DNA of 34,327 bases, from the sequence record SRR31156797_6791; one strand, written 5' to 3'. The notes beneath the pieces are model-generated. The model did not search any database and was not told where the DNA came from. It saw only the letters and a program-made list of their open reading frames with translations. Position numbers and translations under genes: made by a program. The stretch's first letter is position 1, and every line of letters begins with the position of its first letter. This document shows, piece by piece, positions 1 through 5,187 of this stretch.

Positions 1-52
1 AAATATTATATATTTAATTGATTATCATATTATTAAGAATCGAACTCGGGTT
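1..52 (-). mobile_element. Probable terminal end of an IS982-family insertion sequence that continues beyond the left window edge
   Basis: The minus strand reads (T)AACCCGAGTTCGATTCTTAATAATATGATAATCAA, resembling IS982-family ends (AC..GAGTTCGA) as recalled, not searched. IS110 protein similarity stops abruptly at this point. Confidence 0.55.
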
Positions 53-409
53 ACTACTTAATAATCCTAATGAATGTAGCTTTTGAATCCATTGGCAGTC
101 TTCAATATCTGTTTTTTTGCCTTTGATATTCTTGGTAAACTTACCATTACACAATATTACCTTAAAGCCTTTGCTAATAAGTACGGCATATTAGTTTTGC
201 CAGTAGGTACCTGTGCTTTCCATGGCAATAGTGGTTACTTTCTTTTCGATAAACCATTCTGCCATTTCAAAGAGGTCTTCATTATAAACTCCAAATTCAC
301 GAATATCCTCTTCTCTTTGTCCCACAGCCGCCCAATGTGAACGACTTCCGACATCAATACCTGCTGCATGGGTATTGATTACTTCCATTGAAATTGATCT
401 TTCTTCCAT
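53..409 (-). pseudogene. IS110-family transposase/recombinase, N-terminal RuvC-like DEDD domain only; in-frame stop plus truncation
   Basis: GIDVGSRSH..AV and IAMESTGTYW motifs. After TAA at 191-193 the same frame continues YAVLISKGFKVILCNGKFTKNIKGKKTDIEDCQWIQKLHSLGLLSS (the KTD..D..W....GLL motif of IS110) down to nt 53. Confidence 0.92.
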
Positions 410-425
410 AACCTGTCTTTTAAAA

Positions 426-604
426 CTCTATGGAGATGCGCTTTCGGCAAAGTAAACATTCTGAACGGGGTCATAGATACAAAGTATCAATGCCGCCACT
501 GAAATCATCGCAAACATCTCAACCAGAATTGCGCTCGTGCTTAAGAGCAACACTTTAAAGATCGGCCTTGCATAGAGCTAATGGTAAAGGTACCCCCGTT
601 AGCT
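426..604 (-). ncRNA. Candidate IS110 bridge/seek RNA in the non-coding end upstream of the transposase
   Basis: Nested stems: AGCTAA 576-581/TTAGCT 599-604, CTCTATG 426-432/CATAGAG 571-577, GAGATG 433-438/CATCTC 515-520, GATAC 476-480/GTATC 484-488, GCTC 533-536/GAGC 545-548. These leave two large internal loops at the position where IS110-group elements encode their guide RNA. Confidence 0.7.
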
Positions 605-634
605 TCAGAAATCAATGTCTTTGGTATAGGAGGA

Positions 635-676
635 ATTGGCTACAGATTACTGTTAATTAAAGACTATTCACTGTTT
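635..676 (+). repeat. Degenerate 7-bp tandem repeat tract (ACTGWTN type)
   Basis: attggct|acagatt|actgtta|attaaag|actattc|actgttt. Confidence 0.65.
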
Positions 677-681
677 TTTTA

Positions 682-689
682 TATTTTTG
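682..689 (+). promoter_or_regulatory. Bacteroidota sigmaA -7 element upstream of the SDR gene
   Basis: TATTTTTG matches TAnnTTTG, about 21 nt before ATG 711. Confidence 0.6.
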
Positions 690-710
690 CAGCAAACAGA
701 ATCATTCATC

Positions 711-1523
711 ATGAAAAATAAAGTCGTAGTGATTACCGGAGCTTCATCTGGAATTGGTCTGGCCCTTGCCAAAGAATTTGCCCATAGAGGATCAAAACTG
801 GTTTTAGCAGCCCGATCTAAAGACAAACTCAACGAAATTGAAGTAGAACTTAAACAAAAAAACACCGAAGTCATCACCGTAACTACAGACGTAAGCAAAG
901 AAAAAGATTGTAAACGAATGATAGAAAAAGCCATTGAAAGCTTTGGTGGTATTGATATTTTAATTAACAATGCCGGTTTGTCCATGCGCGCTTTATTTAA
1001 AGATGTAGATTTAGCCGTTCTCAAACAATTGATGGATGTAAATTTCTGGGGAACGGTTTATTGTACTAAATATGCCTTACCTCATCTTTTAGCTTCCAAA
1101 GGCTCTGTAACAGGCATTTCTTCCATCGCTGGCTTTATAGGCCTACCGGCTCGAACAGGTTATAGTGCCAGCAAATTTGCCATGCATGGTTTTTTAGAAA
1201 CCTTACGGGTTGAAAACCTAAAAAAAGGCTTACACGTATTGATTGCCGCTCCGGGCTTTACAGCTTCAAACATAAGAAAAACAGCGCTGACTAACGATGG
1301 TTCTCAGCAAGGTGAAACACCTCGCAAAGAAGATAAAATGATGAGTGCGGAAGAGGTCGCTTTTAAAGTAGCCAATGCCATCAAAAAAAGAAAAGCAACT
1401 TTAATACTGACTTTTGTGGAGGGTAAACTAACCGTATGGCTCAAAAAATGGATGCCTCGTTTATTGGAAAAAATGGCCTACAACCATATGGCAAAAGAAC
1501 CAGATTCTCCGCTAAACAAGTAA
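711..1523 (+). CDS. Classical short-chain dehydrogenase/reductase (SDR)
   Basis: TGASSGIG cofactor motif, NNAG, catalytic YSASK. ATG 711 is preferred to TTG 687, which overlaps the -7 promoter element. Confidence 0.93.
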   Translation: MKNKVVVITGASSGIGLALAKEFAHRGSKLVLAARSKDKLNEIEVELKQKNTEVITVTTDVSKEKDCKRMIEKAIESFGGIDILINNAGLSMRALFKDVDLAVLKQLMDVNFWGTVYCTKYALPHLLASKGSVTGISSIAGFIGLPARTGYSASKFAMHGFLETLRVENLKKGLHVLIAAPGFTASNIRKTALTNDGSQQGETPRKEDKMMSAEEVAFKVANAIKKRKATLILTFVEGKLTVWLKKWMPRLLEKMAYNHMAKEPDSPLNK

Positions 1524-2928: not shown

Positions 2929-5187
2929 ATGGACAATATTTATTTAATTCTGGTAGTCGTTTTGTTTGTATTGGCTATATCAGATTTGGTTGTAGGTGTG
3001 AGTAATGATGCTGTTAACTTTTTAAACTCAGCATTAGGATCTAAAGCAGCACCTTTTAAAGTTATTATGGTCATAGCGGCAGCTGGTATTTTTGTCGGAG
3101 CCACATTTTCAAGTGGTATGATGGAAGTTGCCCGAAAAGGGATTTTTAATCCTCAGTACTTTTATTTTACTGAAATCATGACCATATTTTTAGCGGTAAT
3201 GATTACGGATGTATTATTACTGGATGTATTTAATACATTTGGAATGCCTACTTCCACCACCGTATCTATTGTTTTTGAATTACTGGGTGGAGCTATAGCA
3301 CTGTCTATCATCAAGCTATCTAACAACCCGGAAATTCCTTTAAGTGATTATATTAACACCGCCAAAGCGCTGGCCATTATATCCGGTATTTTATTATCCG
3401 TTGTGGTGGCTTTCTCTTCCGGAGCTATTATTCAATATTTTACCAGGCTCGTTTTTTCTTTTAATTATGAAAGCCGTCTTAAGTATTTAGGTGCCCTTTG
3501 GGGAGGAATTGCTATTACAGCAATCACTTATTTTATTTTGGTGAAAGGCGCTAAAGGGGCTTCTTTTATGAGTAGCGATGCCAAAGCCTGGGTTAAAGAA
3601 AATACGGTTCAAATTATTTTCATCAGTTTTGCCGGCTGGACTGTTCTGCTTCAGCTGATGCGAATGATCTTTAAAACAGACATTCTGAGATTAACGGTAC
3701 TGGTTGGTACCTTTGCATTGGCCATGGCCTTTGCCGGTAACGATTTAGTTAACTTTATTGGAGTACCGTTAGCCGGATTTGAATCATTTAAGATATTTCA
3801 GGCATCCGGTTCTGCTGCTGATGGTTTATTAATGGAATCCTTAGCAGGGAAAGTAAAAACAGACACCTACCTTTTAATTATTGCCGGTTTAATCATGGTT
3901 ATCACTTTATGGACTTCTAAAAAAGCCCGTAATGTGGTAAAAACATCTTTAGATTTAGCCAGACAACATGAAGGTGAAGAAAGATTCGGTTCATCTTATT
4001 TATCCCGTGCCATTGTGCATGGAGTTGTAAACATGGTAAATACTGTTAATAAGGTAATTCCGGCAGGTGTTCGCACAAAAATTGAAAAGCAGTTTGATTA
4101 TCAGGTATACGAAGAAAAAAGAAAGCAATTGGGAGATGAAGCTCCTGTGTTTGATATGCTTCGTGCCTCGGTAAATTTAGTTGTTGCCAGTATTCTGATA
4201 TCTTTAGCTACCTCATTTAAACTTCCTCTATCCACCACCTACGTGACCTTTATGGTAGCTATGGGTAGTTCATTAACCGACGGAGCCTGGGGTAGAGAAA
4301 GTGCTGTATATCGTGTAACAGGAGTACTATCTGTTGTGGGAGGATGGTTTTTAACTGCCATATCTGCATTTACAGTTTGTTTTATCGTAGCCAATATTAT
4401 TTATTTTGGTGGTGTTTATATGGTATTTGTCCTTATCGCTATTTCTTTGTTTATTATTTACAGAACTCACATTATCAGTAAAAAAAGAAGTGCTAAAAGC
4501 ATCGATACAAAAACTGCCACACTTGAAGAGATAGATGAAAAAGCTTTAGCTAAAGCGATTTTTGATAACTGTACTTTAAATACTATTTCTTGCCTGCAAG
4601 AGGTTTCTGATATATACACTGCCACATTCCCTCTTTTCCAGGAAGAAAACAGAAAAGGAATTAAACAAAATATTAAAAAGGTATCTGAGTTAAACAAAAC
4701 CATTAAAGGGTATAAGGACAATATTTACAAAACAGTTAAAAAATTACAGGAATCAGAAATTGATTCTAGCTTACATTACGTACAAGTAATTGATTATTTA
4801 AGAGAAGCAGCACATGCTTTATCTTATATCGTAAAACCTTGTTATCAGCATCTGGATAACAACCATACACCATTTAATGATAAACAATACGAGGATCTGA
4901 ATATCTGTGTTGATGATGTAGCCAAATATATTAGCTCGGTAATTGATATTATTAAGAAAGGTGATTACAATGACTTTGAATCTGCCCGCGATAAGATGGA
5001 AAAATTCACCGGAGATTTAAAATCGCTTAGAAAAAAACAATTAAAGCGAATTAAAAAATCTTCTAAATCGAGCACACAAAATAGTATGTTGTTTTTAAAC
5101 TTGTTACACGAAACCCAAAATATGATTTTGCATATTGGTAACTTGTTAAAAGCTCAAAAAGAATTTGGAAGTTACAACAATGACTAA
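2929..5187 (+). CDS. PiT-family inorganic phosphate transporter with a C-terminal helical, PhoU-like domain
   Basis: Two PiT signature repeats (GVSNDAVN, AGNDLVN), PTSTT and PLSTT motifs, many TM helices, soluble helical C-terminus of about 230 aa. Confidence 0.9.
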   Translation: MDNIYLILVVVLFVLAISDLVVGVSNDAVNFLNSALGSKAAPFKVIMVIAAAGIFVGATFSSGMMEVARKGIFNPQYFYFTEIMTIFLAVMITDVLLLDVFNTFGMPTSTTVSIVFELLGGAIALSIIKLSNNPEIPLSDYINTAKALAIISGILLSVVVAFSSGAIIQYFTRLVFSFNYESRLKYLGALWGGIAITAITYFILVKGAKGASFMSSDAKAWVKENTVQIIFISFAGWTVLLQLMRMIFKTDILRLTVLVGTFALAMAFAGNDLVNFIGVPLAGFESFKIFQASGSAADGLLMESLAGKVKTDTYLLIIAGLIMVITLWTSKKARNVVKTSLDLARQHEGEERFGSSYLSRAIVHGVVNMVNTVNKVIPAGVRTKIEKQFDYQVYEEKRKQLGDEAPVFDMLRASVNLVVASILISLATSFKLPLSTTYVTFMVAMGSSLTDGAWGRESAVYRVTGVLSVVGGWFLTAISAFTVCFIVANIIYFGGVYMVFVLIAISLFIIYRTHIISKKRSAKSIDTKTATLEEIDEKALAKAIFDNCTLNTISCLQEVSDIYTATFPLFQEENRKGIKQNIKKVSELNKTIKGYKDNIYKTVKKLQESEIDSSLHYVQVIDYLREAAHALSYIVKPCYQHLDNNHTPFNDKQYEDLNICVDDVAKYISSVIDIIKKGDYNDFESARDKMEKFTGDLKSLRKKQLKRIKKSSKSSTQNSMLFLNLLHETQNMILHIGNLLKAQKEFGSYNND

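Follow-up and report, generated by a model that had tools for sequence, protein, structure and literature searches.

The window, meaning the whole 34,327 nt stretch of DNA that was analysed, starts within one insertion sequence and then enters the remains of another. The latter is the left end of an IS110-family element, which runs from ~635 downwards on the minus strand. The left ~two-fifths of the element, ~635–52, is present; its right end, right flank and right junction lie outside the window. The features of the locus are:

1–66, minus strand: end of an IS982-family insertion sequence, within which the window starts and which truncates the IS110 transposase gene near 66–52
52–409, minus strand: 5′ part (~119 codons) of an IS110-family transposase pseudogene, with an in-frame TAA at 193–191; similarity to relatives is lost near 52
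425–578, minus strand: predicted bridge RNA gene (RNAalifold and pair counts, n = 51; covariance model, 155.5 bits)
580–635, minus strand: leader or non-transcribed stretch of the left end, with the terminus TTCCTCC at 635–629 and a small conserved hairpin
587–580, minus strand: TAccTTTA box, within a variable spacer
602–597, minus strand: left subterminal inverted repeat CTAACG, upstream of the variable spacer
614–608, minus strand: internal site TGATTTC, identical to one guide of the RNA (the loop B 5′ guide, below)
636–647, minus strand: left flank, the left half of the target, ending ...GTAGCCAA at 636, the last 3 nts of which, CAA, match another guide (the loop A 3′ guide)
687–1523, plus strand: short-chain dehydrogenase gene, from the start of which an AT-rich spacer leads to the IS110 left end

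The first 72 codons of the open reading frame that begins at 409 match PF01548 (DEDD_Tnp_IS110) with E = 9.9e-6 at 25.9 bits, a score below the cut-off of 29. By tblastn the pseudogene is 79% identical to residues 1–119 of the intact 452-aa protein of a related locus, L014, and the TAA replaces a leucine that the relatives have in the context YWQN-L-YAVL. Positions 11–66 match the ends of a 1.05-kb repeat that is present in 10 copies in the nearest genome, G001 (83% identity over the terminal ~45 nts), and the open reading frame of that repeat encodes an IS982-family transposase (268 bits on NF033520). The IS110 transposase gene in the window is dead twice over, by its in-frame stop and by IS982 truncation. 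That makes the RNA gene 5′ of it a relic, except if the genome has intact copies at other loci that employ this RNA in trans.

Homology of the window copy to other copies sets in at 638–636. Degenerate (A/T)ACAGT-type short repeats, the number of which varies between strains, fill spacers here (640–690 and 1740–1830 in the window, and 1545–1800 in L001). An empty site was sought in G001, where homology to the flank ends at window position 675, in the variable ACAGT-repeat tract; because the number of repeats differs between strains, the empty site was not rebuilt.

Among 23 genomes of the genus there are two copies at 92% identity (L012 and L018, both in G016) and four at 75% (in G023 and G009); the nearest genome, G001, was searched for an IS110 copy and none was found. 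A scan seeded with the protein, covering a single genome for each species, confirmed 250 relatives, of which the best 80 loci were used. These best 80 have 74–100% transposase identity, and all are from Bacteroidota by record title. On NF033542, 'IS110 family RNA-guided transposase' (cut-off 140), the intact homologue in L014 reaches 226.6 bits, and it also matches PF01548 (79.9 bits) and PF02371 (47.4 bits). Its resemblance to the IS621 protein is marginal (phmmer, E = 8.6e-4) and it is the longer of the two, 452 aa against 326–328. A Bacteroidota bridge recombinase is what an earlier note, made from the letters alone, had tentatively proposed, and the lineage is a Bacteroidota one, distant from IS621. 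A search of the literature on bridge RNA, IS110, seekRNA, IS1111, attC and integrons, with supplementary tables outside its scope, found no paper on this Bacteroidota clade.

The window copy is not alone in its decay. In L012 and L018, which are 99.7% identical to each other, the transposase gene is frameshifted at the same A9 run (~2495–2504 and ~2493–2502, respectively), so that either a copy spread after the frameshift or the A9 run is slippery or error-prone. The transposase gene of L013 has an in-frame stop.

The upstream RNA and its conservation

The sequence in which the earlier note read a bridge-RNA-like guide RNA is present where that note placed it, on the minus strand. In an alignment of 51 distinct upstream sequences (A1, 172 columns), RNAalifold gives six helices:

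P1, 578–573/430–425, minus strand: outer helix, CTCTATG/CATAGAG
P2, 567–563/525–521, minus strand: with G-U pairs
P3, 552–547/540–536, minus strand: with G-U pairs
P4, 520–514/439–433, minus strand: GAGATG/CATCTC
P5, 498–487/476–466, minus strand: with one T-T mismatch, common to L012, and G-U pairs
P6: a GAAA mini-hairpin

The two closing helices that the note had drawn (P1 and P4), and both internal loops with their capping hairpins, are kept in the 51 distinct homologues. Pairing holds in 97.0% of the 1823 paired cells of A1, and in 23.9–48.0% when the partners are slid by 1–3 columns. Compensatory changes, affecting both sides, occur in 21 of the 36 pairs, so that the stem covariation for which a covariance model of homologous ends had been suggested as a check is present. 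The observed covariation score was reached by none of 500 shuffles, a control whose significance is inflated by the relatedness of the 51 sequences; the slid-partner control is the fairer one and is clear-cut. The invariant G-U pairs in P2, P3 and P5 settle which strand the RNA comes from, the transposase-sense one.

A covariance model built from A1 has a single match in the 34-kb window, 424–579 on the minus strand at 155.5 bits, a result that is partly by construction as the window sequence is in the training set. Of 80 related loci, 79 have a match to it just 5′ of the transposase gene, and the exception, L043, has only 66 nts upstream. The model also matches loci outside its training (L026, L027, L044, L084, L088, L101, L107 and L108), among them a Pontibacter plasmid copy with 63% transposase identity (L108, 70 bits) and a Chondrinema copy with 48% (L107, 38 bits). 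The minimum free energy fold of the single sequence has z = +0.96, and 168 of 200 shuffles fold equally well or better. Because the lone sequence folds no better than its shuffles, support for the RNA is comparative and not thermodynamic. An Rfam search of window positions 1–1500 gave 4 matches, all far under their gathering scores, and no fitting family.

One helix of the earlier reading, a 5′ hairpin at 604–576 (GCTAA...TTAGC), does not survive the comparison. Its 3′ arm is missing in the 92% identical L012 and L018, the spacer there is variable in length and sequence, and its left arm is the left subterminal inverted repeat CTAACG.

Element ends and the DNA matched by the two loops

Near-identical copies within the same genome diverge exactly between ...AA and T(T/C)CC at the left, and exactly after ...GT(C/T)AGAA at the right. 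These boundaries come from L012/L018, from L013/L019/L022, from nine copies of a single Prolixibacteraceae assembly and from six of a Schleiferiaceae one. After the stop codon the right end comprises only ~35–50 nts. There are subterminal inverted repeats of 6–7 bp, ACGTTAG being 6 nts from the right terminus and CTAACG(T) ~33 nts from the left terminus. The left-end start, TCCNCCC, is conserved, and the small hairpin between it and the internal site has two covarying pairs. [In L030 and L031 a right end abuts a left-end start, GTCAGAA being followed directly by TTCCCCCTATACC (by TTCCCCC in L030); the contig is 3.5 kb long, and the abutment is either a circle junction that was assembled or a copy in tandem.]

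The sides of the two internal loops that match DNA are as follows:

554–562, minus strand: loop A 5′ guide, ATCTTTAAA, which, read as its reverse complement, predicts a right flank (+1 to +9) of TTTAAAGAT
526–534, minus strand: loop A 3′ guide, GCGCAATTC, identical to the left flank, −4 to −1, and the left-end start, +1 to +3
501–508, minus strand: loop B 5′ guide, ATGATTTC, identical, on the same strand, to the left-end internal site at 614–608
458–465, minus strand: loop B 3′ guide, TTCAGAAT, identical to the terminal hexamer of the right end in relatives, TCAGAA

The first loop covaries with the flanks of the insertion site, its 3′ side strongly and its 5′ side weakly. Across 60 insertion events the 3′ guide is identical to the left flank at −4, −3, −2 and −1 in 46, 44, 55 and 59 events, and to the left end at +1, +2 and +3 in 59, 59 and 60. 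The covarying types of 3′ side and DNA are GG/AA/TT, CC/TT and AA/CC, with TT/CC at +2. The left flank in the window matches this guide only at CAA. For the 5′ guide, the best of all offsets and orientations is its reverse complement at right flank +1 to +9, with a mean of 4.4 matches in 9 (49%). The background is 2.76 (sd 1.44 per site), and as a fraction the other offsets give 0.31 (sd 0.05). Cognate against permuted pairs gives z = 2.7, with same-lineage copies being non-independent. In the identity orientation this guide shows no cognate enrichment in the flank. On these figures the 5′ side appears to match the right flank weakly. The possibility that the 5′ guide corresponds to the right-end subterminal sequence ATTTTTAC was also considered; this is true in L012–L014 and fails in the larger set.

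The second loop matches the right-end terminus, and its match in the left end is at the internal site and not at the terminus. The 3′ guide is identical to the right-end terminal hexamer, 6/6, in 34 of 35 distinct elements, with TCAGAA, TTAGAA and TTATAA covarying; in the distant 63% and 48% relatives TCAGGA and TATGGAAT covary likewise. The 5′ guide matches the first bases of the element on neither strand. Across loci it is identical instead to a site on the same strand 21–28 nts inside the left end, with 7/7 agreement in 22 distinct elements, 6/7 in 17 and 5/7 in 2 (at least 6/7 in 39 of 41). There are 25 distinct pairs of guide and site. Under permutation (2000 permutations) the mean is 4.72, with sd 0.13 and a maximum of 5.27. 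The complement of this guide was looked for elsewhere in the element and was found at no consistent place, a comparison of the loop B guides with target flanks gave no signal, and a covariation scan for an RNA partner of the left-end start TCCNCCC found none beyond the 3 nts in loop A. The 5′ guide being identical to the top strand, ~21 nts further into the element, a single physical strand would pair with both guides of the donor loop. As it misses the first bases of the element, the donor reading is incomplete and departs from that of IS621. [The internal site was also considered as the −33 element of a promoter, for which its TTG is unconserved.]

The segments that the earlier note had picked out as guides, 555–562, 527–531, 501–508 and 460–465, are those that covary with DNA in homologues, and to that extent its view that the loops track junctions and sites was right. 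The specificities it obtained by combining them were not: both loops track DNA in another combination than that of the note. Its ATGATTTCTGAA is not the circle junction. The copy boundaries and the natural abutment in L030 predict that the junction is ...GTCAGAA joined to TTCC...; the 5′ side of loop B tracks the internal left-end site, and the 3′ side the right terminus. The note's full 12-mer is present inside the left end, at 615–604, only in the window's own lineage.

Target preference and integron attC sites

In a logo of 61 insertion events the left half of the target has C at −12 in 55, G at −11 in 60, T at −10 in 55, T at −9 in all 61, A or G at −8 in 58, A at −2 in 54 and A at −1 in 60; the right flank is T-rich and then A-rich. 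The sites favoured are thus CGTT-N6-AA, with CGTT 8 nts to the left of the crossover, the spacing that is found in the right end (CGTTAGTCAGAA). CGTT at −12 to −9 is the strongest feature of the target, and on neither strand is it matched by any of the four guides. The left flank in the window has ATCT at these positions, in place of CGTT, and the site is in an ACAGT-repeat spacer. Specificity is less predictable than the earlier note had held out: the guide for the right flank averages 4.4 matches in 9 at natural sites and the dominant CGTT is unmatched by the guides.

Many left flanks are imperfect palindromes of ~150 nts that start ...YAAC and end AACGTTAG, and these come in arrays with a spacing of 0.5–0.7 kb. 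In L057 a tyrosine recombinase gene (1–738, minus strand) is ~215 nts from the insertion; its partial protein matches TIGR02249 with E = 2.9e-28, below the cut-off. [An integron-integrase-like tyrosine recombinase is found at this distance in L052 and L059 also, all three loci being from one Prolixibacteraceae assembly.] The palindromic flanks, the arrays and the nearby integrase together place the family often at the R′ end of integron attC sites. The Prolixibacteraceae loci suggest several chromosomal integrons in that assembly, each struck in attI or its first attC, or close by. Papers cited for the IS1111-attC group include Tetu & Holmes 2008 and Post & Hall 2009. The L012 insertion is in a coding region and not in an attC.

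In L013 and L022 the element is directly upstream of a different IS110-type element, and the right flank fits the guide poorly there, which suggests targeting dominated by the left half-site. [A second, divergent bridge-RNA-like match, at 51.6 bits, is directly 3′ of the right end at 3234–3398 in L013, at 201–365 in L022 and at 2686–2850 in L042 and L045.] L013, L022, L042 and L045 have two IS110-type elements head-to-tail, with the upstream one inserted exactly at the left junction of the resident. [On the reverse strand of L024, at ~2848–2880, is an unoccupied attC end, CGTTAGTTGCATTTTAAAT, that is similar, apart from −1, to the target cognate to the G023 element; the guides of that element are GCGCAA and TTTTTTAAA.]

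A probable bridge RNA in a decayed element, and alternatives to it

With a probability that we put at roughly 0.88, window ~635–52 on the minus strand is the decayed left end of an IS110-family element of a Bacteroidota-wide lineage, and 578–425 encodes its bridge (seek) RNA with two guide loops. The RNA structure, three of the four correspondences between guide and DNA, the boundaries of the element and the target logo come directly from the comparison of homologues. That the RNA is made and binds the recombinase we infer, as we do what the 5′ side of loop B pairs with. In the scheme proposed, an outer helix would enclose two stem-loops, and the two sides of each internal loop would serve as DNA guides. 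Loop A would be the reader of the target and would run 3 nts into the first bases of the element in a handshake-like manner. Loop B would be the donor reader, with its 5′ side matching 21–28 nts inside the left end, by the left subterminal inverted repeat. Recombination would join target ...AA to the left-end T(T/C)CC and the right-end ...GAA to the right flank, the common AA being the core. The earlier assignment to the IS110 family, with loop A for the target and loop B for the donor, is borne out by the homologues and by the matches of guides to DNA.

The scheme has its precedent in IS621, whose bridge RNA has two-loop logic and handshake guides, its first loop reading the target and its second the donor (Durrant et al. 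2024, PMC11208160; Hiraizumi et al. 2024, PMC11208158). As there, the predicted RNA is in the left end, upstream of a recombinase with DEDD/RuvC and Tnp domains, and of its two internal loops one, the first, is for the target and the other, more conserved, for the donor. The 3′ guides extend by 1–3 nts as handshake guides, which the last 3 nts of the loop A 3′ guide resemble (PMC11208158), and a short core is common to donor and target. Unlike IS621, an outer helix is present around both domains and the conserved 5′ stem-loop is absent, and the core is AA(T) where that of IS621 is CT. The IS621-type guide polarity is not found. The polarity is reversed, the 3′ sides of both loops being identical to the top (transposase-sense) strand of the left halves, to the left of each site. 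With the polarity so reversed, the canonical scheme accounts for three guides of the four and not for the loop B 5′ guide. By that scheme this guide should be complementary to the top strand at the first bases of the element; its match 21–28 nts inside the left end is, unlike its IS621 counterpart, on the same physical strand as that of the 3′ donor guide.

In the IS1111-type seekRNAs the order of the guides is reversed relative to IS621, and some of these elements target attC (Siddiquee et al. 2024, PMC11187229). The lineage shares with the IS1111-attC elements ISKpn4, ISPst6 and ISPa25 an orientation-specific insertion at one end of attC and subterminal inverted repeats, and with the IS1111 seekRNAs a target guide in which the bottom-strand complement is 3′ of the top-strand complement (PMC11187229). 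It differs from them in several respects. The RNA is upstream of the transposase gene in 79 of 79 loci with a match, whereas that of IS1111 is downstream, in a long non-coding region; the inverted repeat is 6–7 bp (CGTTAG/CTAACG; ACGTTAG/CTAACGT) and not 11–13 bp; and the terminal extensions are 6 nts on the right and ~33 nts on the left, compared with 3 and 7. The hosts, unlike those of the IS1111-attC group, are Bacteroidota. Judged from sequence, the guide order is IS1111-like and the placement of the RNA is IS110-group-like. The family shows that the architecture and polarity of a bridge RNA are not tied to the position of its gene in the element.

Taken alone, the locus is what remains of an RNA-guided insertion sequence of a known kind, and a largely expected feature. 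Could the structured leader instead be a cis-acting 5′ UTR that governs translation or stability of the transposase message and reads no DNA? It is directly upstream of the start codon, P1 ending 15 nts before the ATG at 409. However, it is the unpaired sides of the loops, and not the stems, that track the left flank and left-end start, a right terminus ~1.5 kb away and an internal site in the left end. A UTR model does not predict such tracking of outside DNA, which counts against it, and the homologous family is annotated, and established by experiment, as RNA-guided (PMC11208160 and PMC11187229). We regard a UTR of this kind as very improbable. That the RNA gene in the window still functions as an orphan guide, used in trans by intact transposase copies in the same genome, is less far-fetched and yet unlikely. 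The RNA itself scores 155.5 bits and has a single non-standard pair, common to L012; short derivatives that have cognate ends and lack the RNA show that the family mobilises in trans; and the IS621 bridge RNA is functional in trans (PMC11208160). Set against these, the nearest genome, G001, is without a copy, the only close relatives, L012 and L018, are both frameshifted in the A9 run, and the donor to be guided has its right end missing at this locus. The bridge RNA of a decayed element remains the preferred reading.

Within that preferred reading, the identity of the loop B 5′ guide to the internal site is the feature to carry forward: a conserved match of the donor loop, on the same strand, inside the left end. 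It might reflect self-regulation, the RNP acting near its own promoter or the RNA pairing with an antisense transcript, with the left terminus being read by protein. The internal site is ~20 nts upstream of the TAnnTTTA-like box in the window. [By the Bacteroidota consensus this TAccTTTA box is a putative promoter.] Also in keeping with self-regulation, the left-end start TCCNCCC is conserved and yet partnerless in the RNA covariation scan, and the complement of the guide is absent elsewhere in the element. The TTG of the site is, however, unconserved (variants are TCAGTAC, ATACTCC and TAACAAA), the stretch that separates it from P1 is variable in both length and sequence, and derivatives that lack the RNA retain the site, which suggests a role in cis in mobilisation; self-regulation is on balance doubtful. 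Equally doubtful, and of a different kind, is that the donor loop reads a folded donor, single-stranded or cruciform in the manner of attC, and not the U-shaped duplex of IS621. Both loop B guides would then pair with the strand that matches the recombinogenic bottom strand of attC, one at the right terminus by the right inverted repeat and the other by the left repeat, ~20–30 nts beyond the crossover; the CGTTAG/CTAACG repeats would form the stem and the left-end start the loop. The reconstructed junction is able to fold by way of the inverted repeats, and its folds have a mean of −12.4 kcal/mol for the bottom strand and −10.1 for the top (RNA parameters). A TTC/GAA pairing of the internal site with the right terminus, which a folded donor predicts, is common and shows no covariation, the AAA, TAC and TCC variants retaining GAA. 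Because this pairing fails to covary, the folded donor is put forward tentatively.

If the same-strand match at the internal site is what it appears to be, it would add to the ways known for a bridge RNA to recognise the element that encodes it, and the oddity of the donor loop would bear on the engineering of bridge recombinases and on the colonisation of integron cassette arrays. The family may also serve as a natural case of targeting led by a left half-site and a fixed CGTT motif. It is abundant in Bacteroidota (250 relatives in one scan), and several cultured strains appear to have intact copies: Algoriphagus yeomjeoni DSM 23446 (L032), Algoriphagus jejuensis JCM 16112 (L051), Mariniflexile sp. 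HMF6888 (L029), Flavivirga algicola Y03 (L099) and Kaistella sp. SH40-3 (L089).

The short derivatives are MITE-like elements of ~130 nts that retain ~45 nts from the start of the left end and the final ~19 nts of the right end, with no RNA and no transposase. In G023 their internal site and terminus are the same as those of the full element of that genome. From their sequence they look like non-autonomous partners. The internal left-end site was considered as the true left boundary, which would make the short elements empty targets; this fails, since full and short elements stay homologous beyond the site, as far as CTAACG, and are homologous again only from the right end on, and the left-end start is in all copies. 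Some short elements are in tandem, the right end of one being the left flank of the next. MITE-like elements are at ~1490–1640 in L015, L016, L017, L023 and L024, and the part that their inverted repeats enclose is similar to a short attC. L024 and L019 also have members of a second type, in tandem or nearby, that end CGTTAGTCACAA.
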